Shown here: positions 18,769 to 52,015 of the stretch, piece by piece
Position numbering within the stretch: position 1 is the first letter of the stretch
Layout of the letters: each line of letters opens with the position of its first letter
NCBI RefSeq assembly: GCF_044324785.1
Contig: NZ_CP172127.1
DNA length: 64,000 nucleotides
Source: Escherichia coli
Lineage (GTDB): Bacteria > Pseudomonadota > Gammaproteobacteria > Enterobacterales > Enterobacteriaceae
Strand: one strand, 5' to 3'
Made by a program: the position numbers and the translations under genes
The notes under the pieces: generated by a model
What the model was told of the DNA's origin: nothing
Databases searched by the model: none
What the model saw: only the letters and a program-made list of their open reading frames with translations

Positions 18769-18775
18769 GGACGAT

Positions 18776-19516: not shown

Positions 19517-19531
19517 TCCGGAGAGTCAGCG

Positions 19532-19954
19532 ATGTTCCTGAAAACCGAATCATTTGAACATAACGGTGTGACCGTCACGCTTTCTGAACTGTCAGCCCTG
19601 CAGCGTATTGAGCATCTCGCCCTGATGAAACGGCAGGCAGAACAGGCGGAGTCAGACAGCAACCGGAAGTTTACTGTGGAAGACGCCATCAGAACCGGTG
19701 CTTGTGTGGTGGCGATGTCCCTGTGGCATAACCATCCGCAGAAGACGCAGATGCCTTCCATGAATGAAGCCGTTAAACAGATTGAGCAGGAAGTGCTTAC
19801 CACCTGGCCTACAGAGGCAATTTCTCATGCTGAAAACGTGGTGTACCGGCTGTCCGGTATGTATGAGTTTGTGGTGAATGATGCCCCTGAACAGGCAGAG
19901 GATGCCGGGCCTGCAGAGCCTGTTTCTGCGGGAAAGTGTTCGACGGTGAGCTGA
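19532..19954 (+). CDS. G: Tail assembly chaperone gpG
   Basis: 140 aa MFLKTESFEHNGVTVTLSELSALQRIEHL... Confidence 0.9.
   Translation: MFLKTESFEHNGVTVTLSELSALQRIEHLALMKRQAEQAESDSNRKFTVEDAIRTGACVVAMSLWHNHPQKTQMPSMNEAVKQIEQEVLTTWPTEAISHAENVVYRLSGMYEFVVNDAPEQAEDAGPAEPVSAGKCSTVS
19930..19936 (+). promoter_or_regulatory. Programmed -1 ribosomal frameshift slippery heptamer GGGAAAG (G to G-T fusion)
   Basis: G GGA AAG at the 3' end of G; the T ORF opens in the -1 frame exactly here. Confidence 0.65.
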
Positions 19955-20370
19955 GTTTTGCCCTGAAACTGGCGCGCGAGATGGGGCGACCCGACTGGCG
20001 TGCCATGCTTGCCGGGATGTCATCCACGGAGTATGCCGACTGGCACCGCTTTTACAGTACCCATTATTTTCATGATGTTCTGCTGGATATGCACTTTTCC
20101 GGGCTGACGTACACCGTGCTCAGCCTGTTTTTCAGCGATCCGGATATGCATCCGCTGGATTTCAGTCTGCTGAACCGGCGCGAGGCTGACGAAGAGCCTG
20201 AAGATGATGTGCTGATGCAGAAAGCGGCAGGGCTTGCCGGAGGCGTTCGTTTTGGCCCGGACGGGAATGAAGTTATCCCCGCTTCCCCGGATGTGGCGGA
20301 CATGACGGAGGATGACGTAATGCTGATGACAGTATCAGAAGGGATCGCAGGAGGAGTCCGGTATGGCTGA
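19936..20370 (+). CDS. T: gpT portion of the gpG-T frameshift fusion chaperone
   Basis: 144-aa -1 frame ORF beginning at slippery site (no independent RBS expected). Confidence 0.85.
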   Translation: MFDGELSFALKLAREMGRPDWRAMLAGMSSTEYADWHRFYSTHYFHDVLLDMHFSGLTYTVLSLFFSDPDMHPLDFSLLNRREADEEPEDDVLMQKAAGLAGGVRFGPDGNEVIPASPDVADMTEDDVMLMTVSEGIAGGVRYG

Positions 20371-32405: not shown

Positions 32406-32980
32406 TGGCATTCAGAATGAGTGAACAACCACGGACCATAAAAATTTATAATCTGCTGGCCGGAACTAATGAATTTATTGGTGAAGGTGACGCATATATT
32501 CCGCCTCATACAGGTCTGCCAGCAAACAGTACCGATATTGCACCACCAGATATTCCTGCTGGCTTTGTGGCTGTTTTCAACAGTGATAAGGCATCGTGGC
32601 ATCTCGTTGAAGACCATCGGGGTAAAACGGTTTATGACGTAGCGTCAGGGGACGCGTTATTTATTTCTGAACTCGGTCCGTTACCGGAAAATGTTACCTG
32701 GTTATCGCCGGAAGGGGAGTTTCAGAAGTGGAACGGCACAGCCTGGGTGAAAGATGCAGAAGCAGAAAAACTGTTCCGGATCCGAGAGGCGGAAGAAACA
32801 AAAAACAGCCTGATGCAGGTAGCCAGTGAGCATATTGCGCCACTTCAGGATGCTGTAGATCTGGAAATCGCAACGGAGGAAGAAACCTCATTGCTGGAAG
32901 CCTGGAAAAAGTATCGGGTGTTGCTGAACCGTGTTGATACGTCAACTGCACAGGATATTGAATGGCCAGCACTGCCGTAG
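32405..32980 (+). CDS. tfa: Tail fiber assembly protein Tfa
   Basis: 191 aa [24 protein letters not shown]...; ATG overlaps stf stop (TAATG). Confidence 0.9.
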
Positions 32981-33077
32981 GGTAAAACATATAAATTCTA
33001 TAATTAGATGTATCTTTCCATTTACGGCAAGGAAGGGGGCTTGGAAGACGTAAAGCATCTCACACCGAGATTATTTT

Positions 33078-33668
33078 TTATATGTCAGGTGTCTGAAGTT
33101 TTGCTTTGGCTCTTAAAATGGTTTGCCGCGAGGTTTTGAATTCCCGGGCAATGGCACTTATACTTACACCTGACTTAATTCGTTCGAATACCACCTGTTT
33201 CTGTTCTTCATTTAACACAGGTGGTCGACCAAAACGTTTCCCTGCGCCGCGGGCTCTTACTATCCCGGAATGAGTGCGTTCAAGTAAAAGGTCTCGTTCA
33301 AATTCAGCGACTGCTGAAATTACGTGCATCATCATTTTTCCTGTTGGACTGGTCAGGTCAATGCCCCCCAATGCTAAGCAATGCACTCTGATACCTGTTT
33401 CGGTCAGTTGTTCCACTGTTTTCCTGATATCCATTGCATTACAACCAAGGCGATCCAGTTTTGTCACAATCAATTGATCACCACATTTCAGGCGAGCAAG
33501 CAACCGGTTAAAACCAGGACGCTCACTGGTTGCTGCTGAGCCGCTAATGTGTTCTTCGATTATTTGCTGAGGTTTGATTTTAAAACCTGCACTTTCGATT
33601 TCCCGGCGTTGATTTTCGATGGTCTGATCCAGCGTTGATATCCGACAGTAAGCAAAAATTCGAGACAT
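33078..33668 (-). CDS. pin: Pin/Gin/Hin-family serine DNA invertase
   Basis: 196 aa [20 protein letters not shown]... with catalytic Ser in the N-terminal motif and C-terminal HTH. Confidence 0.9.
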
Positions 33669-33984
33669 AGTGAGACTCTATACGAAATTGGTGTTCATAT
33701 CATAATGCATCTCAGAAAATAATTTTGATTATTTTTGTGCATATTTGTATGTACACGTTCGAAAATAAACGAATGCGTATGCAACCCCGTAATTTTGGTG
33801 AGACCCAAAATCGATTTTGTGAAAAATGGCTTTAACTCGGTTTGTTTTTCGAGTTCCGGGCGGACTCAAGGAAGAAGAATAGTGTTGCGTGTTATTTTAA
33901 CCAGATTTCAAGTTGTTTGGTCGTGGAAAAGTGGAGCAAAATGTTGTTAAAGTGGAAAAATGATAAAAAAGTAAGTTTATTATA

Positions 33985-34218
33985 TTACATTTTACCATTT
34001 AAATTTTGGTTGTCTTTAAGAACTGATATCGCTGTTTGTAATAATTCTTTGTTATCCAGCCATGATTTTTTCTTTATGTTTCCTTCAATGTAATCAAGCA
34101 ATGTTCTGGTATTGATAGGTCTTCCCTGTTTTGCTACTTCCACTACAGCATCCCCTAGGATAATTCTTACTTCAGGAAGCTGCGCAGGGAACCACTTTAG
34201 GGTGTCTTTTGATTTCAT
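33985..34218 (-). CDS. ydfK: YdfK/YnaE-family prophage protein
   Basis: ORF 33985-34251; start at MKSKDTLKWFPAQLPEV (77 aa). Confidence 0.75.
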   Translation of the reverse strand: MKSKDTLKWFPAQLPEVRIILGDAVVEVAKQGRPINTRTLLDYIEGNIKKKSWLDNKELLQTAISVLKDNQNLNGKM

Positions 34219-35003
34219 GAAGATATTCCTTAAAATATTATTGAGTTTCATTGCGATATTGTATGTCTGATTCAGGATATGTTGACTTATACATCGGTTT
34301 TGTCTGGGTTATTGGATATGCCAATCCCTAATTTTATTAGGGCATGACTAAAAATGCTGAATATGATAAGGAGAGAAGTGATTATCAGTATGCTGTTCAT
34401 ATAGCCTCGAATTAGTAATGTGTTATATATGATATAGTTGACAATTTTTATCTTGGGTGTTCTTAAAGTTCGTAGATAAACATTGTCGTTTCAGGTATAC
34501 AGGAATGCTAACAGGTGGCAGCAAAAATCAGGCGGTTTATGGCGCAAGCTGAAGCGGCAACTGCAAACTATCTTATGCAGAGACTCTACACGGATTGGGT
34601 TTAAAAGTATACATAGATAACAGTTTTTATCTGAAAAAGAAAAATATCAAGGTGATATAGCCTATATGCCTTTGATGCGGAGGAATGAATGTGATGGGAG
34701 TGATGTATCTGAATAGTTGAAAAACCGCAGACACGCCTTATGCAAGAACGTGCTGCGGTTGGCTGGTAAATTTTTCGATAGTGTGAGTATTGAATGATTT
34801 CCAGCCGTTCTTGATTTTACGCATAAATCCATGAAAAAACTACTTATCTGTTGGGGAGTTTTTTTGGGGCATATATGGGACAGAAATAGGCCCCAGATAG
34901 ACACTGAGATCGAACTTAGGATGCTTTTTAAAAAATGCAACTATCTGAAAAAACCTAGAAAACGCCAAGGAAACCACAGGATGGGAAAAAACACCTGTGA
35001 ATT

Positions 35004-36287
35004 ATGGATTTCCAGTTATATTCGCTCGGCGCAGCGTTAGTGTTTCATGAAATATTTTTTCCTGAATCATCAACGGCAATGGCGTTAATTCTGGCAATGG
35101 GAACCTACGGTGCAGGTTATGTGGCACGTATTGTCGGAGCATTTATTTTCGGCAAAATGGGCGACAGAATCGGGCGTAAAAAAGTGCTCTTTATTACCAT
35201 CACCATGATGGGGATCTGTACCACCTTAATTGGTGTGCTGCCGACCTATGCACAAATTGGTGTGTTTGCGCCAATTTTGCTGGTGACGCTGCGTATTATT
35301 CAGGGGCTGGGGGCAGGCGCGGAAATTTCCGGTGCCGGCACGATGCTGGCGGAATATGCACCAAAAGGTAAGCGCGGAATTATCTCCTCATTTGTTGCTA
35401 TGGGGACTAACTGCGGAACCTTGAGCGCAACGGCAATCTGGGCCTTTATGTTCTTCATTCTCAGTAAAGAGGAACTGCTGGCGTGGGGATGGCGTATACC
35501 GTTCCTGGCGAGCGTTGTCGTGATGGTCTTTGCTATCTGGTTGCGTATGAATCTGAAAGAAAGCCCGGTCTTTGAGAAGGTTAACGACAGCAACCAACCG
35601 ACAGCAAAACCTGCACCTGCTGGTAGCATGTTCCAGAGCAAATCCTTCTGGCTGGCAACAGGGCTGCGTTTTGGTCAGGCGGGTAACTCAGGTTTAATTC
35701 AGACTTTCCTTGCAGGCTATTTAGTGCAGACGTTATTGTTTAACAAAGCAATTCCAACAGATGCATTGATGATCAGTTCGATTCTCGGCTTTATGACCAT
35801 TCCGTTCCTTGGTTGGTTATCCGATAAAATTGGTCGCCGGATCCCGTATATTATTATGAATACCTCCGCGATTGTGCTGGCATGGCCAATGCTTTCTATC
35901 ATCGTAGATAAAAGCTATGCCCCGAGCACCATTATGGTTGCACTGATTGTGATTCATAACTGTGCGGTGCTGGGATTATTTGCTCTGGAAAACATTACCA
36001 TGGCAGAAATGTTCGGCTGTAAAAACCGCTTTACCCGGATGGCTATTTCTAAAGAAATTGGTGGTCTTATCGCTTCCGGTTTTGGTCCTATCCTGGCGGG
36101 TATTTTCTGCACCATGACGGAATCCTGGTATCCGATCGCCATTATGATCATGGCATATTCAGTGATTGGTTTAATCTCTGCGCTGAAAATGCCAGAGGTG
36201 AAAGACCGTGATTTAAGTGCGCTGGAAGACGCTGCGGAAGATCAACCGCGTGTTGTAAGAGCTGCGCAACCTTCCAGAAGTCTGTAA
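35004..36287 (+). CDS. ydfJ: MFS transporter (metabolite:H+ symporter family), apparently lacking the normal N-terminus
   Basis: 427-aa ORF MDFQLYSLGAALVFHEIFFPESS...; aligns from the conserved WYDF motif onward of MHS transporters; in-frame stop immediately upstream. Confidence 0.85.
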   Translation: MDFQLYSLGAALVFHEIFFPESSTAMALILAMGTYGAGYVARIVGAFIFGKMGDRIGRKKVLFITITMMGICTTLIGVLPTYAQIGVFAPILLVTLRIIQGLGAGAEISGAGTMLAEYAPKGKRGIISSFVAMGTNCGTLSATAIWAFMFFILSKEELLAWGWRIPFLASVVVMVFAIWLRMNLKESPVFEKVNDSNQPTAKPAPAGSMFQSKSFWLATGLRFGQAGNSGLIQTFLAGYLVQTLLFNKAIPTDALMISSILGFMTIPFLGWLSDKIGRRIPYIIMNTSAIVLAWPMLSIIVDKSYAPSTIMVALIVIHNCAVLGLFALENITMAEMFGCKNRFTRMAISKEIGGLIASGFGPILAGIFCTMTESWYPIAIMIMAYSVIGLISALKMPEVKDRDLSALEDAAEDQPRVVRAAQPSRSL

Positions 36288-36376
36288 ATCCTCCATCCCT
36301 TCTCTTACCGGAGAGGGGATTTTTTATTCATATAACAAAACATGCAGCTTGCCATATTTAAATTTAAGGAATTGTT

Positions 36377-37837
36377 ATGGGAAATAATTTGTTATCAGCA
36401 AAAGCGACGCTCCCTGTTTATGATCGTAATAACCTGGCCCCAAGAATTGTTCATTTAGGCTTTGGTGCATTTCACCGTGCGCATCAGGGCGTGTATGCCG
36501 ATATTCTTGCTACGGAACATTTCAGTGACTGGGGATATTATGAGGTCAATTTAATCGGCGGCGAACAGCAAATTGCCGATTTACAACAGCAAGATAATCT
36601 TTATACCGTTGCGGAAATGTCGGCCGATGCGTGGACGGCTCGCGTCGTTGGCGTCGTTAAAAAAGCCTTGCACATACAAATAGATGGCTTAGAAACCGTG
36701 CTGGCCGCGATGTGTGAACCGCAAATCGCGATTGTCTCTCTGACAATCACCGAAAAAGGGTATTTCCACTCTCCGGCGACCGGACAGTTAATGCTCGATC
36801 ACCCGATGGTCGTTGCCGACGTACAAAATCCCCACCAGCCGAAAACTGCAACAGGGGTGATTGTCGAGGCGCTGGCTCGCCGTAAAGCGGCAGGACTTCC
36901 CGCATTTACCGTCATGTCATGTGACAACATGCCAGAAAACGGTCATGTTATGCGTGACGTTGTCACTTCCTACGCGCAAGCTGTTGATGTAAAACTGGCA
37001 CAATGGATCGAAGAAAACGTGACTTTCCCATCAACAATGGTGGACCGTATTGTGCCCGCAGTGACGGAGGATACGCTGGCGAAAATCGAACAACTTACCG
37101 GTGTGCGCGATCCTGCTGGCGTTGCCTGTGAACCTTTCCGCCAGTGGATAATAGAAGATAACTTTGTTGCCGGACGTCCGGAATGGGAAAAAGCGGGAGC
37201 CGAACTGGTTAGTGATGTGCTGCCTTATGAAGAGATGAAGTTGCGCATGCTCAACGGCAGTCATTCATTCCTGGCGTATCTGGGTTATCTTGCCGGATAT
37301 CAGCACATTAATGACTGCATGGAAGATGAACATTATCGTCATGCAGCGTATGCCTTGATGTTGCAAGAACAAGCGCCGACGTTGAAAGTGCAGGGCGTTG
37401 ATTTGCAAGATTACGCTAACCGATTAATTGAACGCTATAGCAACCCGGCGCTACGTCATCGAACCTGGCAGATTGCGATGGATGGCAGCCAGAAATTGCC
37501 ACAGCGGATGTTGGATTCTGTTCGCTGGCATCTGGCGCATGACAGCAAGTTCGATCTGCTGGCTCTGGGCGTCGCAGGTTGGATGCGTTATGTCGGTGGT
37601 GTTGATGAACAGGGAAATCCGATAGAAATCAGTGACCCACTGTTACCTGTTATTCAGAAGGCTGTACAAAGTAGTGCCGAAGGGAAAGCGCGCGTCCAGT
37701 CATTGCTGGCGATTAAGGCGATCTTTGGTGATGATTTGCCAGACAATAGCTTGTTTACTGCAAAAGTGACGGAAGCGTACTTGTCTTTATTAGCGCATGG
37801 TGCGAAAGCGACCGTGGCGAAATATTCCGTGAAGTAA
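36377..37837 (+). CDS. ydfI: Mannitol dehydrogenase-family oxidoreductase
   Basis: 486-aa ORF; N-terminal Rossmann GFGAFHRAH. Confidence 0.9.
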
Positions 37838-37872
37838 AAAAAGCAATGCCGCCATCGGCGGCATTCACACGC

Positions 37873-38076
37873 TTAGTTCATGCCGAGACGAATCAGGTCC
37901 AGAGGTGCCAGTTTCTCTTCACAACCTTCAACAACTACGGTTTTTCCGCGGCGGATTTGCTCAGCGGTCAGACCTTCAGTATCAATCGACAGGATCTTGC
38001 CAGTGTGACCGGTGCCGCTAACCATAACACGGCTGCCAGTGGTGATTGCGTTACGGTTACGATCGTAGGTCGTCAT
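37873..38076 (-). CDS. ydfZ: YdfZ small protein
   Basis: 67 aa [32 protein letters not shown]... Confidence 0.85.
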
Positions 38077-38252
38077 AGGTGTTTTCTCCTTTCTGATTTA
38101 CAGTCGAAGCCCACGTAACGGGCGCAATATAAATACTCCTGTCGAGTGAAATATTTTTTGTTTTTGATCAAGCTCACATCTTTTTTGATGCATGCATGAG
38201 CCATATGACGGAGGGAAAAACTCTCACCCCGGATGGGATGAGAGGAAATGAA

Positions 38253-38939
38253 TTACTCTTCGCTAAACCAGTCGCTGTTTTCCTGGCGGATCTGGCGCAC
38301 GGATTCGCTGATTTCCTGCAAATGTTGCGTCATTGCACGTTCTACCGCATCGCCATCACGTTTTTGCAGGGCAGAGAAAATCTCAAGATGCTGGCGTAAC
38401 AGCATTTCTGGTGGAGAAACGTGGTCGAAACTCATATAGCGCACGCGATCAACGGTCGCTTTCAGGTTCTCAATGGTATCCCACGCCAGTTGACAGTCGG
38501 CAATCTGGGTCAAGAGTTGATGGAAGTTGTCATCAAGTTCAAAAAAATCATCCAGTTGTTTGCGCTCAATGGCAATGCGTTGCTGATGAAGATTTTGTTC
38601 CAGTTGGTAGCACTGGCTTTCGGTAATCATGCTCGCCGCCCGACGCGCCACCGCGCACTCAATGGCCTGACGGATAAAACTGCCGTTGCGCACCTGGGCC
38701 ATGGAAATTTTGTTGACGTAGCTGCCACGCTGCGGACGAATTTGAATCAGGCCGTTTTCCGCCAGTTTAATAAAGGCTTCACGAACCGGCTGGCGTGACA
38801 CATTGAAACGAACAGAAACTTCTTTTTCCGACAACGGTGTGCCTGGTGCAATCAGGCAATGGACAATGTCGCGACGAAGAATACGATAAATCTGCTGATT
38901 GACAGGCTGTGTGGGATTAAGTTGCGTTTCGACGGTCAT
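38253..38939 (-). CDS. ydfH: GntR/FadR-family transcriptional regulator
   Basis: 228 aa; N-terminal winged HTH, C-terminal FCD-like domain. Confidence 0.9.
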
Positions 38940-39027
38940 TCGTTCTTGCTTGTGAGTGAGTTAACTGCATGAGTCTACCACTTTTTTGTGACAAGCAATA
39001 ACCCGGCAGTTACGCCGGGTATAAAAA

Positions 39028-39774
39028 TTACTGACGGTGGACATTCAGTCCGGCATAGCTTTGGGTAACCGGCATCATTTCCAGGGTATTGATATTGACG
39101 TGAGCAGGCAGCGTTGACACCCACCAGACGGCTTCGCTGACATCTTCTGGCGTCAATGCAACGGTATTTTGATAGGTTTTTTCCGCTTTACCGTCATCGC
39201 CTTTAAAGCGGACATTGGAAAACTCGGTGCCACCCACCAGACCCGGCTCGATGTCGGTGACGCGCACCGCCGTACCATGCAGGTCCGTACGCAGATTCAG
39301 GCTAAACTGACGAACAAACGCTTTCGTCGCACCGTAAACGTTACCACCGGCATACGGCCAGCTGCCTGCCGTTGAGCCAATGTTAATAATATGACCATGA
39401 TTACGTTCAACCATACCCGGTAAGACGGCGCGCGTCATATATACCAGGCCTTTGTTGTTGGTATCAATCATCGTTTCCCAGTCTTCAACGCTGGCTTTAT
39501 GCGCAGGCTCCATGCCCAACGCCAGACCGGCATTATTTACCAGGATATCAATATTGCACCACTCGGCAGGAAGCGATGCCAGCATCTCTTCAATAGCGGC
39601 GCGGTTGCGAACGTCCAGTTGGGCGATATAAAGATTATCTCCCAGTTCGTCTTTTAACTCCTGCAACCGCTCCTGGCGACGGCCAGTGGCGATAACTTTA
39701 TGCCCTTGTTGAATAAAACGACGAGTAATGCATTCACCAAAACCTGCCGTTGCTCCAGTTACTAAAACGATCAT
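39028..39774 (-). CDS. ydfG: NADP-dependent short-chain dehydrogenase (3-hydroxy acid dehydrogenase)
   Basis: ORF 39028-39789; start at MIVLVTGATAGFG (248 aa); SDR motifs TGATAGFG and YGATK. Confidence 0.9.
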   Translation of the reverse strand: MIVLVTGATAGFGECITRRFIQQGHKVIATGRRQERLQELKDELGDNLYIAQLDVRNRAAIEEMLASLPAEWCNIDILVNNAGLALGMEPAHKASVEDWETMIDTNNKGLVYMTRAVLPGMVERNHGHIINIGSTAGSWPYAGGNVYGATKAFVRQFSLNLRTDLHGTAVRVTDIEPGLVGGTEFSNVRFKGDDGKAEKTYQNTVALTPEDVSEAVWWVSTLPAHVNINTLEMMPVTQSYAGLNVHRQ

Positions 39775-39910
39775 CTCACTGTTCCTCAACGCTTTTGTGT
39801 GTCAATAACATAGCACGTGATGCTTAAGAGCGGGTAATACTGGTTTGCAAGATTGCACTCCGTTATCAGTAAGCCTACGCTATGGAACACCTCGCGTTCA
39901 GGAGAAGAAA

Positions 39911-41956
39911 ATGACAACAATGAATCCTTTCCTTGTGCAAAGCACACTGCCGTATCTGGCTCCCCATTTTGATCAAATTTCCAATCATCACTATCGCCCG
40001 GCATTCGATGAGGGAATGCAGCAAAAGCGGGCAGAAATTGCTGCCATCGCGCTTAATCCGCAAACGCCTGATTTCAACAATACTATTCTGGCACTGGAAC
40101 AAAGCGGAGAATTACTTACCCGCGTTACCAGCGTCTTTTTTGCGATGACTGCGGCGCATACTAATGATGAATTACAGCGTCTTGATGAACAGTTTTCCGC
40201 TGAACTGGCGGAACTGGCTAATGATATCTATCTGAACGGTGAATTATTCGCGCGGGTAGATGCTGTCTGGCAACGCCGTGAATCCCTGGGACTTGATAGT
40301 GAATCCATCCGCCTGGTGGAGGTCATTCATCAACGTTTTGTCCTTGCCGGAGCCAAACTTGCACAAGCTGATAAAGCAAAATTAAAAGTACTGAATACAG
40401 AAGCTGCGACCCTGACCAGCCAGTTTAACCAGCGGTTACTGGCAGCAAATAAATCCGGCGGTCTGGTTGTGAACGATATCGCGCAGCTGGCAGGAATGAG
40501 TGAGCAAGAGATTGCGCTGGCGGCAGAGGCGGCTCGCGAGAAAGGTCTGGATAACAAATGGCTGATTCCGTTGCTGAATACCACCCAGCAACCAGCGCTT
40601 GCTGAACTGCGCGATCGCGCGACGCGTGAAAAACTGTTCACTGCGGGCTGGACGCGAGCGGAAAAAAATGATGCCAATGATACCCGCGCTATCATTCAAC
40701 GTCTGGTGGAGATCCGCGCGCAGCAGGCGAAACTGCTTGGTTTCCCTCATTATGCCGCATGGAAAATCGCCGATCAGATGGCAAAAACGCCAGAAGCAGC
40801 ACTCAACTTTATGCGGGAAATTGTTCCAGCGGCGCGTCAACGTGCGAGCGATGAATTAGCCTCCATACAGGCGGTTATCGATAAGCAGCAGGGCGGGTTT
40901 AGCGCGCAGCCGTGGGACTGGGCATTTTATGCCGAGCAGGTAAGACGTGAGAAATTCGATCTCGATGAAGCGCAGCTCAAGCCTTATTTCGAATTAAACA
41001 CGGTGTTGAATGAAGGCGTATTCTGGACTGCGAATCAGCTCTTCGGTATTAAGTTTGTCGAACGTTTTGATATTCCTGTCTACCATCCTGACGTTCGGGT
41101 GTGGGAAATTTTTGATCATAATGGCGTGGGGCTGGCGTTATTTTACGGTGATTTCTTCGCCCGTGATTCAAAAAGCGGCGGTGCATGGATGGGCAATTTT
41201 GTTGAGCAATCAACGCTGAATGAAACGCATCCGGTAATTTATAACGTCTGCAATTATCAGAAACCCGCTGCCGGTGAGCCTGCGTTGTTACTCTGGGATG
41301 ATGTCATAACCTTATTCCATGAATTTGGTCATACGCTGCACGGCCTTTTTGCCCGCCAGCGTTATGCCACGCTTTCCGGCACCAACACGCCGCGTGATTT
41401 TGTCGAATTTCCGTCGCAAATCAACGAACACTGGGCAACGCATCCGCAGGTATTCGCTCGCTATGCCCGGCATTATCAGAGCGGGGCAGCAATGCCTGAC
41501 GAACTGCAACAGAAAATGCGTAATGCCAGCCTGTTCAACAAAGGGTATGAGATGAGCGAACTGCTTAGCGCCGCACTTCTCGATATGCGCTGGCATTGCC
41601 TGGAAGAAAACGAAGCAATGCAGGATGTCGATGATTTCGAATTGCGGGCGCTGGTGGCGGAAAATATGGATCTTCCTGCTATACCGCCACGCTATCGCAG
41701 CAGTTATTTCGCCCATATTTTTGGTGGCGGATATGCCGCAGGTTATTACGCTTATCTGTGGACGCAAATGTTGGCCGATGATGGTTATCAGTGGTTTGTT
41801 GAGCAGGGCGGATTAACGCGTGAAAATGGGCTGCGTTTTCGCGAGGCGATCCTTTCCAGAGGTAACAGCGAAGATCTGGAACGCCTGTATCGACAATGGC
41901 GCGGTAAGGCACCTCAGATTATGCCGATGCTGCAACATCGTGGCTTGAACGTATAA
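39911..41956 (+). CDS. dcp: Dipeptidyl carboxypeptidase II (M3 zinc metallopeptidase)
   Basis: ORF 39845-41956; start at MTTMNPFLVQSTLPY (681 aa); HEFGH zinc motif present. Confidence 0.95.
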   Translation: MTTMNPFLVQSTLPYLAPHFDQISNHHYRPAFDEGMQQKRAEIAAIALNPQTPDFNNTILALEQSGELLTRVTSVFFAMTAAHTNDELQRLDEQFSAELAELANDIYLNGELFARVDAVWQRRESLGLDSESIRLVEVIHQRFVLAGAKLAQADKAKLKVLNTEAATLTSQFNQRLLAANKSGGLVVNDIAQLAGMSEQEIALAAEAAREKGLDNKWLIPLLNTTQQPALAELRDRATREKLFTAGWTRAEKNDANDTRAIIQRLVEIRAQQAKLLGFPHYAAWKIADQMAKTPEAALNFMREIVPAARQRASDELASIQAVIDKQQGGFSAQPWDWAFYAEQVRREKFDLDEAQLKPYFELNTVLNEGVFWTANQLFGIKFVERFDIPVYHPDVRVWEIFDHNGVGLALFYGDFFARDSKSGGAWMGNFVEQSTLNETHPVIYNVCNYQKPAAGEPALLLWDDVITLFHEFGHTLHGLFARQRYATLSGTNTPRDFVEFPSQINEHWATHPQVFARYARHYQSGAAMPDELQQKMRNASLFNKGYEMSELLSAALLDMRWHCLEENEAMQDVDDFELRALVAENMDLPAIPPRYRSSYFAHIFGGGYAAGYYAYLWTQMLADDGYQWFVEQGGLTRENGLRFREAILSRGNSEDLERLYRQWRGKAPQIMPMLQHRGLNV

Positions 41957-41967
41957 ACACCACCAAT

Positions 41968-41997
41968 GGCTGGCCTGGAGAAATCGCCAGGCCAGCC
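41968..41997. repeat. Perfect 11-bp inverted repeat (GGCTGGCCTGG / CCAGGCCAGCC) with 8-nt loop immediately after dcp
   Basis: Read directly; no downstream U-tract, so likely a stabilising stem or bidirectional structure rather than a canonical intrinsic terminator. Confidence 0.4.
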
Positions 41998-42320
41998 TGG
42001 TTAGAGTAGTAATTGCAGCAGCTGGGCGAGGGCAAACCTCACCGCTAATGCTAATACCGTTTCGCAGTCGCCAGCAAAATTACTTTTTTTGTATACCCTT
42101 CCGTTATAATAATTTTCAAATTTATAAATCTGATTGTTCTGAAATATGTTTAAGACTCTTTAATCTTCTTCTTACTTTAGTGAGTAAAATTCTCTGAATA
42201 TTTGACAGTTAGTTGCCTGATTTTAAATGCCTTATAACAATTGGCAGTATTCTTATTTGTCAATTATAAAAATAGCAACCAGACTTAATAAGTCAAACCA
42301 AACGCAATTAAGGAGTCAGT

Positions 42321-42713
42321 ATGAAATTTCAGGCCATTGTATTAGCAAGTTTTCTTGTCATGCCTTATGCGTTGGCAGATGACCAGGGCGGATTAAAACA
42401 GGATGCAGCGCCACCGCCGCCTCATGCAATAGAAGATGGCTATCGTGGAACCGATGATGCAAAAAAAATGACCGTTGATTTCGCAAAAACCATGCACGAT
42501 GGCGCTTCGGTTTCACTACGCGGTAATTTGATTTCTCACAAAGGAGAAGACCGTTACGTTTTTCGCGATAAGAGCGGAGAAATTAATGTTGTTATTCCTG
42601 CGGCGGTCTTTGATGGACGAGAAGTTCAGCCGGACCAGATGATCAACATTAGCGGTAGTCTGGATAAGAAAAGCGCGCCGGCCGTCGTTCGGGTCACTCA
42701 TTTGCAGAAATAA
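42321..42713 (+). CDS. ydeI: YdeI/YgiW (BOF/OB-fold) periplasmic stress protein
   Basis: 130 aa with signal peptide [19 protein letters not shown]. Confidence 0.85.
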
Positions 42714-42967
42714 AAATAAATTAGCCTGATGGCCTGAACTACTGGGCCATTAGGGTATTGGGTTATGCTATTTGTCATCCTTTTATTTACGATAATGCAG
42801 AGGTAATTTACAGAATTAAACACTTTATTATCCGCTGATTTTGTTTTAAATCACAATGTTATCTCAGAGATGACTCATAACTTCGGATTTCTATGAAAAT
42901 ATTGACGTAATTTTGCTTTTCTCTCGTTAGAATAGCGCGCACAAGGAACTGTGAAAAAGGAGTTGCA

Positions 42968-43858
42968 ATGATCAAGAAGACAACGGAAATTGATGCCATC
43001 TTGTTAAATCTCAATAAGGCTATCGATGCCCACTACCAGTGGCTGGTAAGTATGTTTCACAGCGTAGTCGCGAGAGATGCCAGTAAGCCAGAAATAACGG
43101 ATAACCATTCTTATGGACTGTGCCAGTTTGGTCGGTGGATTGATCATCTGGGGCCACTCGATAACGATGAATTACCTTACGTTCGGCTAATGGATTCTGC
43201 CCATCAACATATGCATAACTGTGGTCGGGAATTAATGTTGGCTATTATTGAAAATCACTGGCAGGACGCGCATTTCGACGCCTTTCAGGAAGGGTTGCTT
43301 TCTTTTACTGCGGCATTAACCGATTACAAAATTTATTTGCTGACGATCCGTAGCAATATGGATGTTTTGACGGGATTGCCGGGTCGTCGGGTTCTTGATG
43401 AATCCTTTGATCATCAGTTACGCAACGCTGAGCCTCTGAATCTTTATTTAATGTTGTTGGATATTGACCGATTTAAATTGGTTAATGATACCTACGGGCA
43501 TTTAATCGGCGATGTAGTATTACGCACCCTGGCAACTTACTTAGCCAGTTGGACGCGCGATTACGAAACGGTTTATCGCTACGGTGGCGAAGAATTTATC
43601 ATTATTGTCAAAGCGGCTAATGATGAAGAAGCATGTCGTGCAGGTATCAGAATTTGCCAGTTAGTCGATAACCATGCCATCACACATTCTGAAGGGCATA
43701 TCAACATTACCGTGACTGCAGGTGTGAGTCGCGCATTTCCTGAAGAGCCTCTGGATGTGGTCATTGGAAGAGCGGACCGGGCAATGTATGAGGGTAAGCA
43801 AACCGGAAGAAATCGCTGTATGTTTATTGACGAACAAAATGTGATTAACCGAGTTTAA
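42968..43858 (+). CDS. dgcZ: Zinc-sensing diguanylate cyclase
   Basis: 296 aa; N-terminal chemoreceptor zinc-binding (CZB)-like His/Cys motifs, C-terminal GGDEF domain with GGEEF. Confidence 0.9.
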   Translation: MIKKTTEIDAILLNLNKAIDAHYQWLVSMFHSVVARDASKPEITDNHSYGLCQFGRWIDHLGPLDNDELPYVRLMDSAHQHMHNCGRELMLAIIENHWQDAHFDAFQEGLLSFTAALTDYKIYLLTIRSNMDVLTGLPGRRVLDESFDHQLRNAEPLNLYLMLLDIDRFKLVNDTYGHLIGDVVLRTLATYLASWTRDYETVYRYGGEEFIIIVKAANDEEACRAGIRICQLVDNHAITHSEGHINITVTAGVSRAFPEEPLDVVIGRADRAMYEGKQTGRNRCMFIDEQNVINRV

Positions 43859-43975
43859 GCTCCGTTTAACATTCATTGAGAAAACTGATGCTACTGTGTC
43901 AACGATCCGTTATCAGTGCAGGAAAATGCCTGTTAGCGTAAAAGCAAAACACAAATCTATCCATGCAAGCATTCA

Positions 43976-44001
43976 CCGCCGGTTTACTGGCGGTTTTTTT
44001 T
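43976..44001 (+). terminator. Intrinsic terminator (plus strand) in dgcZ-mgtS intergenic region
   Basis: Hairpin CCGCCGG-TTTA-CTGGCGG followed by T8. Confidence 0.55.
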
Positions 44002-44007
44002 CGCCGT

Positions 44008-44049
44008 CATAAAAATCAGGCCCCTTGTACACAACTGTAACAAGGGGCC
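44008..44049 (-). terminator. Intrinsic terminator for mgtS (minus strand)
   Basis: 10-bp stem GGCCCCTTGT/ACAAGGGGCC followed on the minus strand by TGATTTTTAT. Confidence 0.55.
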
Positions 44050-44076
44050 GGTTAGGTGAGGGATTATCTCCGTTCA

Positions 44077-44172
44077 TTAGTCATCCCATTTGTGGCTGAA
44101 ATACGCGGCCAGAAAACCAGAAAATAAAATTATTCCCAGTACGGCCATAAAAACATTCATATTACCCAGCAT
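44077..44172 (-). CDS. mgtS: MgtS (YneM) 31-aa inner-membrane small protein
   Basis: Hand-translated MLGNMNVFMAVLGIILFSGFLAAYFSHKWDD; SD GGAGG upstream; below track cutoff. Confidence 0.8.
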   Translation of the reverse strand: MLGNMNVFMAVLGIILFSGFLAAYFSHKWDD

Positions 44173-44298
44173 TATTTGCCTCCGTTTATGGTGTGGTGTG
44201 TTTCCTCGCTTACCTTAATTTTCATCTCAATGAGAAAGATATTAGCAGAGGTAACCTAAACGAAGGCTGAATTAAATTTTTATTGTGTTCGACTTAAA

Positions 44299-45486
44299 TC
44301 AACAAAGCGCGGGCTGCCCCCACGGTCTTGCACGAATTCCTTTTAACATCAGCACCCACGCAGCAATGATCACCAACGCTAAGATGATAAACAGCGAGGA
44401 AGGCGGCAGGTTGGTTAGCACTATGCCACTCACTAATGGGTTAATCGCCGCACCAAGCCAGCCTAAAGACTGAGCGGAAAAATAGCTGGCTTTCATTCCT
44501 GGCGGCGCAATATGGTCAATCAACATATACTCGCCCGGCGCATAAATGATTTCACCGACAGTAAATACCGCAGCTGACATACCCCACAATAGCAGGCTGT
44601 TGCCGGAAAAAATAAAACCGACCAGACCGATGACGAAACAGAGGGTGCCTGCTGTCATCAGCGTGCGGATGTTAGCCGGGTTAAGTCGCCGGCCCACGGA
44701 ATATTGCAACGTAACCACCATGGCAGCATTCACCGGAAGAACAACCGCGACCACCTTTTCGGCAAAATCCCCATCAGCAATCACCATCACATATTGTGAA
44801 ATGCATGAAGCAAATGCGCCGCTAACAAAAGAAGCCAGAAAGCCAGAGCAGGTAAACCACAACAGTGCTTTATCTTGTAATAAAACTTTCGGCGACCAGG
44901 CACTGGCTGTTTCCGTGGCGATGATTTTCTCGCTGCGCTTTACCCAAATTTGAATGAAAAGCATGGGAAACGCGGAACAGATAGCTGCCAGCCAAAAGGG
45001 CAGATTGATGCTCTGCATCACCAACAGCGTGCCGAGCGGCGGACCGATGGTCCAGCCAATGTTTAGCATGGTGTAGTTGATTGAGAAGATTTTCGTTTTG
45101 CTGGTGGAGGAAAGATTGTCGGCAAACCAGGCTTTCAACACGGTAGCAAAAACGGAATAGGCGCAGTTAATAAGGGCAAAAAAGAGTACCACCAGCGTCA
45201 CGTTATTCACTAAAGGAATGGCAATAAAACCGCTGGCGAAGGCGGTAATTGCCAGTAACATATAGCGTTTCTTGTCGAACTTATCCGCCAGGATACCAAA
45301 ACCGAGGCTAAAAACGACGCCAATAGTGAGCGCAATTGTCATCGCATAACCGATTAGATCGACACTCAGGCTGTACTGGCGACTCAAGTAAATGGTCATA
45401 AACGGCAGCGTAGCGCCGCGTCCGATGGTTAATAACAACGACGAGGCAAGAAGGGCGCTGGTAGAGCGTCGTAGGGATAAGTTCAT
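44299..45486 (-). CDS. ydeE: MFS efflux transporter
   Basis: 395 aa, 12-TM profile. Confidence 0.9.
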   Translation of the reverse strand: MNLSLRRSTSALLASSLLLTIGRGATLPFMTIYLSRQYSLSVDLIGYAMTIALTIGVVFSLGFGILADKFDKKRYMLLAITAFASGFIAIPLVNNVTLVVLFFALINCAYSVFATVLKAWFADNLSSTSKTKIFSINYTMLNIGWTIGPPLGTLLVMQSINLPFWLAAICSAFPMLFIQIWVKRSEKIIATETASAWSPKVLLQDKALLWFTCSGFLASFVSGAFASCISQYVMVIADGDFAEKVVAVVLPVNAAMVVTLQYSVGRRLNPANIRTLMTAGTLCFVIGLVGFIFSGNSLLLWGMSAAVFTVGEIIYAPGEYMLIDHIAPPGMKASYFSAQSLGWLGAAINPLVSGIVLTNLPPSSLFIILALVIIAAWVLMLKGIRARPWGQPALC

Positions 45487-45680
45487 TTGTCTGTCCGGCA
45501 GTGCGTTTCGTTATGTTTTGTTTTAGAGATGTAAAGAAATAGCATGGCAAAAATCCGAAGTATAGCGACTTATTTGCGCTTTAATGCCGTCGTAATCGGC
45601 GACTAACGAATCAACTGTTAAAGAAAAGTAAATTCAGCTAAGTTGATTGCTTACAAAAGATGAAATTCAGAGGCGGTAGA

Positions 45681-46580
45681 ATGTCGCGAAAAGATGGGGT
45701 GTTGGCGCTACTGGTAGTGGTCGTATGGGGGCTGAATTTTGTGGTCATCAAAGTGGGACTTCATAACATGCCACCGCTGATGCTGGCCGGTTTGCGCTTT
45801 ATGCTGGTCGCTTTTCCGGCCATCTTTTTTGTCGCACGACCGAAAGTACCACTGAATTTGCTGCTGGGGTATGGATTAACCATCAGTTTTGCGCAGTTTG
45901 CCTTTCTGTTTTGCGCCATTAACTTTGGTATGCCTGCTGGACTGGCCTCGCTGGTGTTACAGGCACAGGCGTTTTTTACTATCGTACTTGGCGCATTTAC
46001 TTTCGGTGAGCGGCTGCATGGCAAACAATTGGCGGGGATTGCCTTAGCGATTTTTGGCGTACTGGTGTTAATCGAAGATAGTCTGAATGGTCAGCATGTG
46101 GCGATGCTCGGCTTTATGTTGACCCTGGCGGCAGCATTTAATTGGGCGTGTGGCAACATCTTCAATAAAAAGATCATGTCGCACTCAACGCGTCCGGCGG
46201 TGATGTCGCTGGTAATCTGGAGCGCATTAATCCCAATCATTCCCTTCTTTGTTGCCTCGCTGATTCTCGATGGTTCCGCAACCATGATTCACAGTCTGGT
46301 CACTATCGATATGACCACCATCTTGTCTCTGATGTATCTGGCGTTTGTGGCGACAATTGTTGGTTATGGGATCTGGGGGACGTTACTGGGACGCTATGAA
46401 ACCTGGCGGGTTGCACCGTTATCGTTACTGGTGCCCGTAGTAGGACTGGCAAGTGCGGCACTATTGCTGGATGAACGCTTAACGGGTCTGCAATTTTTCG
46501 GTGCGGTGCTCATTATGACCGGGCTGTATATCAATGTATTTGGCTTGCGGTGGCGTAAAGCGGTAAAGGTGGGAAGTTAA
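45681..46580 (+). CDS. eamA: Cysteine/O-acetylserine exporter (DMT superfamily)
   Basis: ORF 45660-46580; start at MSRKDGVLALLVVVVWG (299 aa). Confidence 0.9.
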   Translation: MSRKDGVLALLVVVVWGLNFVVIKVGLHNMPPLMLAGLRFMLVAFPAIFFVARPKVPLNLLLGYGLTISFAQFAFLFCAINFGMPAGLASLVLQAQAFFTIVLGAFTFGERLHGKQLAGIALAIFGVLVLIEDSLNGQHVAMLGFMLTLAAAFNWACGNIFNKKIMSHSTRPAVMSLVIWSALIPIIPFFVASLILDGSATMIHSLVTIDMTTILSLMYLAFVATIVGYGIWGTLLGRYETWRVAPLSLLVPVVGLASAALLLDERLTGLQFFGAVLIMTGLYINVFGLRWRKAVKVGS

Positions 46581-46610
46581 TAAGCCCCGAGATGTCGGGG
46601 CCAGAACAAA

Positions 46611-46829
46611 CTACATAGCGTGTTGATTATAATAGGGCACGCCGAGCGCATCCGACTTATCACTGCCAGTACCCATGTGATTTAAATCAAACGGTGGTTG
46701 TTCCTGCGATGGGGGAACAACCACGACATTGGCACAGGAAGTAACAACCGGCTGCGTGGTTTGTTCCGCAATGCCCTGCGTGGAAAAGAGAATAAGCGCA
46801 GCTGCTATTGCGGATAAAAGTGGTTTCAT
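46611..46829 (-). CDS. marB: MarB periplasmic protein
   Basis: 72 aa MKPLLSAIAAALILFSTQGIA... Confidence 0.9.
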   Translation of the reverse strand: MKPLLSAIAAALILFSTQGIAEQTTQPVVTSCANVVVVPPSQEQPPFDLNHMGTGSDKSDALGVPYYNQHAM

Positions 46830-46860
46830 GATTGCCTCAGTGACGTTGTCACGTTATCAA

Positions 46861-47244
46861 CTAGCTGTTGTAATGATTTAATGGATGTAAAAAGCGCGAT
46901 TCGCCCTGCATATTGGTCATCCGGTATTTATGCGGCGGAACATCAAAGTAATTTTTGAAGGTTCGGGTCAGAGTTTGTTGCGACTCGAAGCCATATCGTT
47001 CTGCCAGATAGAGTATCGGCTCGTTACTTTCCTTCAGCTTTTGCGCGATTTCCGTCATCTTACGGCTGCGGATGTATTGGCCTAATGAATGACCGGTTTC
47101 TTTTTTAAACATCCGTTGCAGGTGCCATTTGGAGTAACCCGAACGCTCTGACACTTTCTCCAGTGACAGTGGCGATTCCAGGTTGTCCTCGATCCAGTCC
47201 AAAATGCTATGAATGGTAATAGCGTCAGTATTGCGTCTGGACAT
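46861..47244 (-). CDS. marA: MarA AraC-family transcriptional activator
   Basis: ORF 46861-47250; start at [22 protein letters not shown]. Confidence 0.95.
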
Positions 47245-47264
47245 CGTCATACCTCTTTTTTTGT

Positions 47265-47699
47265 TTACGGCAGGACTTTCTTAAGCAAATGCTCAAGTGT
47301 TGCCACTTCGTCCGCCGTCAGGTTTTTTGTTAATTCTTGGTGCAGGTCCTGGCCAACTAATTGATGGCATTGTTCACATATTGCCGCGCCGCTGGTGGTA
47401 AGTTTTACCAGTACGCCGCGCTTATCATTCGGGTTCGGCAACCTTTCCACCCAGCCTTTACAGACCAGGCGATCCAGCATACGGGTCAGTGCTCCCAGGT
47501 CGACCGACAATACCTTTTTCAGTTCAACCGGAGTAATACACGCCGCGCAGCGGATAGAGCAGAGCACCTTAAACTGTGCCGCGGTAATATCCAGCGGAGA
47601 CAGATACTCGTTAAGCAGGCGATCTTTCTTCTGATTAACCATATGGATTAAGCGACCCAATGGAATAATTTCATTGAACAGATCGCTGGTACTTTTCAC
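47265..47699 (-). CDS. marR: MarR repressor
   Basis: 144 aa [29 protein letters not shown]... Confidence 0.95.
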
Positions 47700-47800
47700 A
47701 TTAGTTGCCCTGGCAAGTAATTAGTTGCAGAGGATAATATTGCCCAGGCAAGTATAAGTCAAATGAATGAATTGACCGATGCCACGTTTTGCTAAATCGG
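47700..47800 (-). promoter_or_regulatory. marO operator/promoter with two MarR-binding palindromes TTGCCCTGGCAA (47705-47716) and TTGCCCAGGCAA (47740-47751)
   Basis: Two near-identical palindromes read directly upstream of marR on its coding strand. Confidence 0.6.
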
Positions 47801-47910
47801 TTCAAGTTTTGGTCAATGCGATGCAAGGTTAGCTAAAGAGTGACACTTTATCCTTGTTTACCCCTTATACTTTTCGCTGATAACCCAGATACACAGGATA
47901 ACAACCACCA

Positions 47911-48576
47911 ATGTTAGATTTGTTTAAAGCAATTGGCCTGGGGCTGGTGGTGTTACTACCGTTAGCTAACCCATTAACAACTGTCGCGTTATTTCTTGGC
48001 CTGGCAGGCAACATGAACAGTGCCGAACGTAATCGTCAGTCGTTGATGGCCTCGGTGTACGTCTTTGCCATCATGATGGTGGCGTATTACGCCGGGCAAC
48101 TGGTGATGGATACATTTGGCATTTCGATTCCCGGTCTGCGAATTGCAGGCGGCTTAATCGTCGCGTTTATCGGTTTTCGGATGCTCTTTCCGCAACAGAA
48201 AGCAATTGATTCACCGGAAGCGAAAAGCAAGTCGGAAGAGCTGGAAGATGAACCCAGTGCCAATATTGCTTTTGTACCACTGGCAATGCCTAGTACCGCC
48301 GGACCGGGAACCATTGCGATGATTATTAGCTCGGCGTCCACTGTGCGTCAGAGTTCAACCTTCGCTGATTGGGTACTGATGGCTGCGCCGCCGCTGATCT
48401 TTTTCCTGGTGGCGGTTATTTTGTGGGGAAGTCTACGCAGCTCTGGCGCAATTATGCGGCTGGTGGGCAAGGGGGGAATTGAAGCGATCTCCCGCCTGAT
48501 GGGATTCCTGCTGGTATGTATGGGCGTGCAGTTTATTATTAACGGCATCCTGGAAATCATTAAAACGTACCATTAA
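47911..48576 (+). CDS. marC: MarC-family inner membrane protein
   Basis: 221 aa [22 protein letters not shown]... Confidence 0.9.
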
Positions 48577-48597
48577 AAAAGGCCCGAATGGGCCTTT
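48575..48597. terminator. Bidirectional intrinsic terminator between convergent marC and ydeA
   Basis: A-run, hairpin GGCCC-GAAT-GGGCC, T-run. Confidence 0.5.
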
Positions 48598-48600
48598 CAA

Positions 48601-49791
48601 CTATTGCGTCTGTTCTTCGAGTGTCACTGGCCAGCGGCGAAAAATGATGATTGACCATATTAACGCGGCAAAAGCAGGCACCGCGCCCACATAACCAATC
48701 ATCGACATTGACCAGTGCAGACTGACCTGATTACCTACCAACGCGCCAGCGCCGATTCCAATATTAAATATCCCCGAGAATAGCGCCATCGCGACATCGG
48801 TGGCATCTGGTGCCAGCGCCAGCACTTTAACCTGCATACCAAGCCCGATGATCATCATCGCGATCCCCCAGAAAATACTTAGCACCCCGAGGTGTATTTC
48901 ACTGTTCGCCGCAGGTAGCAGCAGTGCGAGGCACACCAGCAACAGCGCAATCGCCGTACTCACCAACGCAGACGCATACTGATTACCCAGTTTCCCGAAA
49001 ATCACGCTGCCAATAATGCCCGCACCACCGAGTAATAACAGTAATGCCGTGGCAAAGTTGGCGCTGAATCCCGCAATGTTTTGCACAAAAGGCTCGATAT
49101 AGCTGTATGCCGTGTAATGGGCGGTGACAACCACCACAGTTAACAAATAAATGCTCATTAATGCCGGGCGGCGGAACAATAGCGGGAGGCTTTTCAATGA
49201 ACCGGAATGCTCACTGGGCAGCAAGGGAAGTAACTTAATCAGGCACAAAAGGGTAATAAACGCCCCGATACCAATCGCGAAGAAGGTCATTCGCCAGCCA
49301 AAATACTGCCCCACAATGCGCCCGAGAGGTAAACCTAATACCATTGCCAGTGCTGTACCGGTGGCAATTAAACTCAACGCCTGCGCTCGCTTCCCGGCCG
49401 GAGCCATACGGATCGCCAGAGACGCCGTAATCGACCAGAAAATCGCATGTGCAAAAGCCACACCAATGCGACTGATCACCAGAACGGTAAAGCTCCACGA
49501 CAAAAACGACAGTACGTGGCTGGCAATAAACACCACAAACAGGCAGATCAGTAATTTGCGTCGTTCAACCTGGCTGGTCATTAACATAAAAGGCAATGAC
49601 ATTAGCGCCACTACCCATGCATAAATCGTCAACATGATGCCGACCTGAGCGGTTTGCATGTGAAAACTTTGCGCAATGTCAGAGAGCAGGCCAACAGGGA
49701 CAAATTCGGTGGTGTTGAAGATGAAGGCGGCGACTGCCAGCGTAACGACCCGTAGCCACGCCACTTTGCGGGAAACAGTGTTTGTTGTCAT
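48601..49791 (-). CDS. ydeA: MFS sugar efflux transporter
   Basis: 396 aa, 12-TM profile. Confidence 0.9.
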
Positions 49792-49940
49792 AACAGATTA
49801 TCGGGTGAGTTGCGAAAAAGTGATGAAATGATCTTAAAACGGTTAATGATGTGAATACAATGCATTTGTGATCTGGATCGCGTTTTCCGTTTCTCTGACG
49901 CTGATTCTGTTCCGCGTCAGAGAGTCGGTAACATCACGGT

Positions 49941-51056
49941 TTAATGACGTTCAGGGAGGTCTGGCGTTTTGGCGGTTGCGGGTATAGGTGATCTGACAGG
50001 GGAGCGAGGCCTGTTTTTCACCAGGTCTTCGTGAGTAACTTTTGGCGGCGTTTCATTTTTTACAAAAAGTTTGAGGGTCCTGCGCGCCATATGTTTGATA
50101 ATTTTATCATCACTTAATGATGCTGGCATCAACACGTCATTCAAATCACTTTCATTGGGATTCATAAATTGGTGATAGTGCAACAACATATTGGCGAAAA
50201 ATAAAAACAAGTCCTGAAAATGTGGAAAATCTTGTTCTGCTAAAAGGGATAAAAAGCAGATACAGACTTCGGGTAGTACATGTTTGTTAGAACCTAATGA
50301 ATCCATCAGACTTTGCAATAAATCCTCTTTTAATTCGCTGTCCTTTATGTCAAGAATGGCGGTGATCAAGTTAGGCTCTTTATTGACGAACCATCTGTGA
50401 ACTTCAGAGTTATTCCATAATCGGGGGAGTATGACAAAATTACCGCGAGAGATAAAATTCAGGACAAGCAAATCAAACTGGCGTAAGTAATCTGCAGCGG
50501 TATGGTGATCCGGAGGCAGGGGTTCAATATGTGGTGTATGCGCTCTTTTGATGGGAACGCCAGGGTTGATCATTGGAAATTGTTCAATAAAATCATTCAG
50601 AAACAGAAAGAGCACACGCTCGACGCCGGTCTGAAATACGCGCCCCATAGTGACAGGCTTTGGGTTGGGAGCGCAAAAAATATTAATTTCTCCATCATGG
50701 CGAAAATTATCTAAATAAATAGGGCTTAAATTTATTACTACCTGAAATTCAATATTTTCTTTGTGTCTTCCATTCTTGACGGGATAAGTGAGTTTAAACT
50801 GAACCTTTTCATTGTATAGCGTGTCGTTACCCCGGAAAGAAGTCCTCTGAATATATGATAAGTTATCAAGGTTATTAAATATCTTTTTTGTGGCTGAGTT
50901 GATGTTTAAAGACGTGCGCCACTCTTCATCACATATTATGGTACTGAGTGCATCAATAAAATCCTTTAAAACTTCTTTTACCTGAGGTGCAATATTACGT
51001 ACGGGAAAATCATCAGGAAGAGATATGTAATTGCTGATGCTTACTGGCGTAACCAT
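49941..51056 (-). CDS. yneK: YneK protein of unknown function
   Basis: 371-aa ORF, AT-rich gene. Confidence 0.8.
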   Translation of the reverse strand: MVTPVSISNYISLPDDFPVRNIAPQVKEVLKDFIDALSTIICDEEWRTSLNINSATKKIFNNLDNLSYIQRTSFRGNDTLYNEKVQFKLTYPVKNGRHKENIEFQVVINLSPIYLDNFRHDGEINIFCAPNPKPVTMGRVFQTGVERVLFLFLNDFIEQFPMINPGVPIKRAHTPHIEPLPPDHHTAADYLRQFDLLVLNFISRGNFVILPRLWNNSEVHRWFVNKEPNLITAILDIKDSELKEDLLQSLMDSLGSNKHVLPEVCICFLSLLAEQDFPHFQDLFLFFANMLLHYHQFMNPNESDLNDVLMPASLSDDKIIKHMARRTLKLFVKNETPPKVTHEDLVKNRPRSPVRSPIPATAKTPDLPERH

Positions 51057-51139
51057 ATTTGCCCCATATAGTCATAAGTCATCGGAGCATCACTATATAG
51101 AGCATATTAGCCGCAAGAACTATCAAAAATAGCTCATTG

Positions 51140-52015
51140 CTAACTCTGTTTTGCCGAGTCAGACACATCCAGTAGTTGAATAAATGCCTCAAGCGGACGC
51201 GTTTTCGCACCGCGACGCCAGACCAGCCAGGTTGTTAACCAACGCCATTGCTCAGCTAACGGCCACGCTTCAACCTGGTGATGCCCCGGCATACTTTCCA
51301 GCATAGAGCGTGGAATAAGCGCAATGCCTGCTCCTGCGACCACACAGGCCAACATCCCGTGATACGACTCCATCTCGTGAATAGTTCCCGGAGCGGCACC
51401 GTCAGCATGAAACCAGCTCTCGAAGTGGCGACGATACGAACAATTGGCGCGGAAGGCATAAATGTTACTGCCATTAACCTGACTGGCACGGGTTACTGGC
51501 GCATGTCCTTGTGGCGTGACAATCATCAGCTCCTCGCGGTACACCGGTATCCCGTCAATGGCAGTATGGTTAATGGGCCCATCAATAAACGCCGCATTCA
51601 GTTTTCCCTCCAGCACCCCTTCCAGCATAGTGCCGGAAGGGCCGGTGGAAAGTGAAAACTGAATTTTGGGATAACGACGGTTAAATTCCGCCAGCGTGGC
51701 CGGAATGCGCACTGCAGCGGTGCTTTCCAGCGAACCAAGAGAAAATAAACCTTGCGGCTCATCGCCAGCGACAACGCTCCGCGCTTCATCCACTAACGCG
51801 AGAATTTGTTGGCTATAGCGTAAAAAGTTATGCCCGGCAGGCGAGAGACGTAAACGCTGATTCTCGCGAATAAACAGATCAACCCCCAGTTCTGTTTCCA
51901 GCTGGCGTAGACGGGTAGTGAGATTCGACGGCACGCGATGCACTTTTGCTGCAGCCTGGGTTATGCTGCCAGCTTCGGCAACCGCGTTGAACATCTCCAG
52001 TTGGGTCAGATCCAT
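51140..52015 (-). CDS. yneJ: LysR-family transcriptional regulator
   Basis: 291 aa; N-terminal [43 protein letters not shown]. Confidence 0.85.

Follow-up and report, generated by a model that had tools for sequence, protein, structure and literature searches.

In Escherichia coli K-12 MG1655, the gene ydeJ (b1537, + strand) lies between ydeI (b1536, - strand) and dcp (b1538, - strand), as a preliminary description of the DNA considered here had it. That description presents ydeJ as a CinA/PncC-like gene of about 170 amino acids; the protein is a single-domain CinA/PncC paralogue (PF02464), about 172 amino acids long when complete. YdeJ reportedly has no NMN deamidase activity and carries mutated active-site blocks (PMC3855486). 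Its orthologue in Salmonella, about 60% identical in protein sequence and likewise situated between ydeI and dcp, is present and functional. There the gene is called rdsA; negative supercoiling represses its promoter, and supercoiling rises when the gene is deleted (PMC7387798). The Salmonella locus differs in having an extra small gene, encoding a KGG domain, between rdsA and dcp. The spacer between ydeI and ydeJ in K-12 has been reported to bind RcdA, with activation of ydeI in some media (PMC3535384). Both NF002972 and PGAP name YdeJ "2-oxo-tetronate isomerase", and the MG1655 record has "PF02464 family protein YdeJ". Since that activity (EC 5.3.1.35) has been assigned in K-12 to b2739 (PMC12506659), the product name looks doubtful.

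The window, by which I mean the whole stretch of 64,000 nucleotides that was analysed, is E. coli chromosome. The genes of interest run in the order ydfG (-), dcp (+), ydeI (+), dgcZ (+), and ydeE (-), and all five score above the cutoff against their own NCBIfam equivalogs. The coordinates of features in and around the gap between dcp and ydeI are collected in Table 1. The longest open reading frame for dcp, as called mechanically, opens upstream of the ATG given there, at a TTG at 39845; the match of Dcp to NF007624 (1491 bits) aligns residues 23-702 with positions 1-680 of the profile, and the RefSeq coding sequence of strain CFSAN061763 is at the position equivalent to the window's dcp. 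YdeI matches NF007471 over its full length (1-130) with 258.9 bits, the cutoff being 179.

Elsewhere in the window, positions 1-20000 are a lambdoid prophage (terminase, portal, capsid, ydfU), with more prophage genes extending to about 34500. The prophage is 99.3-99.5% identical to prophages of IAI1 and other strains, and the genome closest to the window annotates tfaQ and pinQ within it and a truncated ydfJ beside it. Across the backbone from 32000 to 52000, no match among 5,426 complete E. coli genomes exceeds 98.8% identity, whereas matches at 99.5% exist for the prophage part; the lineage of the source strain seems to be poorly represented among complete genomes in this region.

Table 1. 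Coordinates of features at the dcp-ydeI locus, numbered from the first nucleotide of the window.
Feature	Position	Strand	Details and basis
dcp, peptidyl-dipeptidase Dcp, intact	39911-41956	+	681 aa from ATG at 39911; open reading frame and NF007624 match
11-bp perfect inverted repeat, 8-nt loop	41968-41997		arms GGCTGGCCTGG (41968-41978) and CCAGGCCAGCC (41987-41997)
ydeJ pseudogene remnant	42001-42080	-	last 26 codons, ending ..FAGDCETVLALAVRFALAQLLQLLL, and stop; blastn, tblastn, PGAP
Junction of the 475-bp deletion	42079..42080		1-bp (T) ambiguity; alignment breaks and 40-mer survey
Retained part of divergent ydeJ/ydeI spacer	42080-42320		241 bp, 27% GC; alignments
ydeI, YdeI-family OB-fold stress protein, intact	42321-42713	+	130 aa; NF007471 match
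dgcZ	42968-43858	+	NCBIfam equivalog
ydeE	44299-45486	-	NCBIfam equivalog

The gap between dcp and ydeI occupies 364 bp (41957-42320) and contains no open reading frame of 60 or more amino acids (those that touch it have 38, 49, and 51), in good agreement with the roughly 360 bp first described. The accompanying characterization of the gap as AT-rich holds for its right two-thirds (42080-42320) but not for 41957-42079, where the GC content is 55% as compared to the window average of 50%. The gap is made up of the hairpin between the convergent dcp and ydeJ, a ydeJ tail (42001-42080) that appears to be dead coding sequence, and the 241-bp AT-rich region upstream of ydeI. A scan of 41500-44500 against Rfam (E up to 1) found nothing in the gap. 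Its sole match, a strong one, was to the Hfq-binding small RNA STnc560 at 43870-44083 (+ strand; 282 bits, E 8.5e-66), a known element at the position of mgrR, just 3' of dgcZ and partly antisense to mgtT/mgtS.

The remnant of ydeJ lies 44 bp beyond the dcp stop codon, convergent with dcp as in K-12. It aligns with K-12-like ydeJ over 80 of 80 bp at 96.25% identity (blastn) and in translation with an E value of 3e-5 (tblastn), in frame and with a K-12-like C-terminus. The preliminary description had raised the possibility that ydeJ is missing from this interval, which is true of all but these last codons, and it had suggested that remnants be sought there; they are present, though its reader had overlooked them. 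A Pfam search with the 26-amino-acid fragment gave no match (K-12-like YdeJ, for comparison, scores 162 bits against PF02464 and 329 bits against NF002972). The remnant thus retains the position of ydeJ between dcp and ydeI, but not a complete open reading frame of about 172 amino acids matching PF02464 or NF002972. No second ydeJ-like sequence, hence no intact ydeJ, was found in the 64-kb window.

In its flanking genes, their order and orientation, the hairpin between dcp and ydeJ, and the region upstream of ydeI, the window resembles MG1655, the flanks being about 97.7-98% identical at the nucleotide level. MG1655, however, has a full 519-bp ydeJ and a 275-bp spacer between ydeJ and ydeI, and from these the window lacks 475 bp. 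The direct adjacency of dcp and ydeI is therefore not shared by K-12, which has ydeJ in between. Whether aligned to MG1655, to a K-12-like strain (CIT), or to O157:H7, the window gives an alignment that breaks at one and the same base, 42080. The missing 475 bp correspond to L002:2580-3054 of the K-12-like strain and to approximately 1,624,738-1,625,212 in NC_000913.3, and they take in the first 440 bp of ydeJ (85% of the gene, from codon 1 to about codon 146) together with the 35 bp that precede its start. At the junction, ...GTCGCCAGCAAAA is joined to TTACTTTTTTTGTATAC..., with 1 bp of microhomology between the breakpoints, and the alignments reveal no remnants of IS or REP elements, no multi-bp direct repeats, and no foreign DNA at either of them.

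The gap is almost certainly the scar of one old deletion of 475 bp in the ydeI-ydeJ-dcp locus of E. coli. The event would have removed the promoter-proximal part of ydeJ and a little of the sequence upstream of it, leaving dcp and ydeI intact, apparently with no involvement of a mobile element or repeat. Since the ends share only 1 bp, their joining would have been illegitimate (non-homologous or slippage-type), a microhomology of that length being insufficient to fix the mechanism. The expression of ydeI would be unaffected.

The hairpin left of the remnant is as first described, a perfect one with arms of 11 bp, and lies between the stop codons of dcp (41954-41956) and of the ydeJ remnant (42001-42003). 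Its predicted fold has a dG of -28.8 kcal/mol (z = -3.5), equalled or bettered in 0 of 200 shuffles, and it is kept in 10 of 10 aligned E. coli alleles, with single-base variants in stem or loop. It provides the G+C-rich stem-loop expected of a Rho-independent terminator but not the run of T's directly after the stem, which is followed by TGGTTAGAG on the + strand and ATTGGTGGTG on the - strand. A terminator scan left the hairpin uncalled because no T-run follows. Judged from the sequence, it is a candidate terminator for the once-convergent dcp and ydeJ and the obvious candidate to end transcription of dcp.

Prevalence was counted over the 5,426 complete genomes of E. coli, with a 40-mer at the junction (window 42057-42096) as the probe, searched in blastn mode. 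The junction was found in 1,799 genomes (33%), 1,782 of the 1,801 matching records being at least 99% identical to the probe. A longer probe of 61 bp undercounted, finding 151 genomes at 80% coverage or more, with its right half mostly unaligned in other carriers, probably due to a SNP at 42097. The segment that was deleted is present in 3,618 genomes and the locus itself in 5,419. Since 3,618 and 1,799 add up to 5,417, just two fewer than the 5,419 that have the locus, the intact and deleted states are essentially exclusive, and the near-disjoint counts also show that ydeJ is not kept elsewhere in genomes that bear the deletion. Of the strain-specific deletion first proposed, the deletion stands, as the alignment to MG1655 confirms, but it is not specific to the strain.

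The deletion is found in two contexts. The state of the window, with ydeJ lost and ydeI intact, is that of about 760 genomes (about 14%), and another 19% or so carry a second deletion besides, leaving about 67% with ydeJ intact. CFSAN061763, CE10 (O7:K1), and 19KM1831 have the allele of the window: an identical junction, an 81-bp remnant, and an intact ydeI, differing only by scattered SNPs (best local identity 98.6-98.8%). In these three strains and in ST131, PGAP labels the 81-bp remnant a pseudogene, "incomplete; missing N-terminus". The ydeJ deletion is inherited and lineage-wide, its carriers including CE10, 536, and ST131, of which the latter two belong to phylogroup B2 and CE10 to phylogroup F. 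As a pseudogene allele it is old and widespread and had already been annotated; in other words, it is an ordinary lineage polymorphism.

ST131 and UPEC 536 share the window's junction in ydeJ and add to it a second deletion, of 500 bp, whose breakpoints have 5 bp of microhomology (junction at L003 2619-2623 in ST131). This second junction occurs in 1,037 of the 5,426 genomes, those of ST131, UPEC 536, and others. The missing segment corresponds approximately to 42123-42622 of the window, which retains all of it and, unlike the doubly deleted strains, an intact ydeI. The nested deletion would be the later of the two in ST131 and 536; it takes the promoter of ydeI and roughly the first 100 codons, so that a 90-bp tail of the gene remains, and it leaves the lineages that carry it without the YdeI stress protein.

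Could the absence of ydeJ be an artefact of the assembly or sequencing of the window? The idea is hardly credible, given that the exact junction recurs in 1,799 complete genomes that were assembled independently and that 20 kb of the window run collinear with strains bearing the same allele. What can be said for it is that in one public record, HH97 (NZ_CP116409.1; L020 1401-2160), the locus looks suspicious and scrambled. The junction of the 475-bp deletion lies there within flanks that are K-12-like on both sides (the left 99.9% identical over 1,524 bp, the right extending about 77 bp), followed by some 250 bp of heavily scrambled sequence, which falls within the segment that the second deletion takes out, and by a ydeI with an internal stop. 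HH97 is the sole record of its kind among the 5,426 genomes. I infer a single origin for the 475-bp deletion, and HH97 does not fit a simple version of this unless it represents a recombinant or an artefact of assembly. It is probably an artefact, a consensus of mixed reads being plausible, with a rare recombinant as the alternative. The thought of a recurrent identical deletion, which HH97 had prompted, was set aside, the record being also scrambled and broken in ydeI. Just as difficult to believe is the opposite polarity, in which the short arrangement of dcp and ydeI came first and ydeJ was a later insertion in the lineages of K-12, B1, and O157. The division of genomes into two-thirds with ydeJ and one-third without is by itself silent on polarity. 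The "empty" site, however, has 80 bp of the 3' end of ydeJ, in frame, which argues for deletion and not insertion. Furthermore, protein searches and contig look-ups found ydeI-ydeJ-dcp-ydfG in the K-12 order in a divergent Escherichia (L025), a contig of the E. fergusonii type (L027), and Salmonella enterica (L029). Since these outgroups keep the arrangement, the deletion is derived; their synteny and the remnant together refute an insertion. The contig of the divergent Escherichia is 88-89% identical to the window, and its alignment also breaks at 42080. The protein identity of YdeJ orthologues is 87% in divergent Escherichia, 66% in E. fergusonii, 57-64% in Salmonella, and 62-65% in Citrobacter.

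A homologue of the YdeJ family (NF002972, 287 bits) is also present in Klebsiella pneumoniae ATCC 13883 (L013 1288-1800), where it is not beside dcp or ydeI but adjoins a gene on the opposite strand for a protein of 422 amino acids. A degenerate DNA pattern for the codons of FAGDCETV returned mostly chance matches, along with ATCC 13883. The terminal "GT" of the pattern left out alleles of the ST131 type, and the codons in question are not the same in other species.

To the right of the junction, the retained spacer would now serve only as the upstream region of ydeI. It ends in a Shine-Dalgarno sequence, AAGGAG (42310-42315), five bases before the ydeI ATG. The exact consensus of the RcdA box, TTGTnnACA, was found neither in the window's gap nor in the K-12-like spacer. 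The part next to the junction, 42080-42154, differs from alleles with intact ydeJ at 12 of 75 positions (16%; P about 5e-8 against a local background of 2.1%), and the remainder of the spacer is 7% different from K-12-like alleles. The 12 differences are completely linked to the 475-bp deletion across the 5,426 genomes: the flank of the deletion type was absent from every genome with intact ydeJ, where a chimeric probe matched over its full length at 90.7% at best. When polarised by the single sequence of the divergent Escherichia, about seven of the changes fall on the branch with the deletion and about four on the intact branch, with one ambiguous. A complex or imported event at the junction was considered and dropped, as no intact genome has the flank and the changes are split across both branches. 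What fits better, with one outgroup sequence as the guide, is that this stretch, the former promoter region of ydeJ, has evolved rapidly on both branches, and relaxed constraint after the death of ydeJ may have added to the change. There is, finally, a very small chance that the deletion made or exposed a functional element, either the 49-amino-acid open reading frame at 42048-42197 or a transcript from what remains of the orphaned ydeJ promoter. The frame does start with ATG and span the junction, and divergence from intact alleles is unusually high in the 75 bp beside it. But the frame is short, with a low-complexity, AT-driven composition, it is not annotated by PGAP in the genomes inspected, and its 3' part is cut off in genomes of the ST131 type by the second deletion, which starts at 42123. 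Moreover, the gap has no Rfam match, no promoter-like site on its + strand was found, and the surplus differences are spread over both branches.

If the gap is the scar of a deletion, what does the loss of ydeJ mean for the strains that have suffered it? By analogy with Salmonella, the absence of YdeJ/RdsA from one-third of E. coli might shift the set-point of DNA supercoiling in those lineages. I consider this unlikely. It would apply if YdeJ of E. coli acts like its Salmonella orthologue, and would then cover all of the ST131- and 536-type genomes seen, in which the nested loss of ydeI would add a difference in envelope stress. It is more likely that the repeated loss of ydeJ signals its dispensability. 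In any event, the gene content of K-12 at ydeI-ydeJ-dcp is not universal. The locus offers a clean presence/absence marker, and because one deletion is nested with the other, the two events can be ordered, so that it could serve as a marker of lineage. For those who study YdeJ/RdsA or YdeI, extra-intestinal lineages such as ST131 are naturally without one or both.
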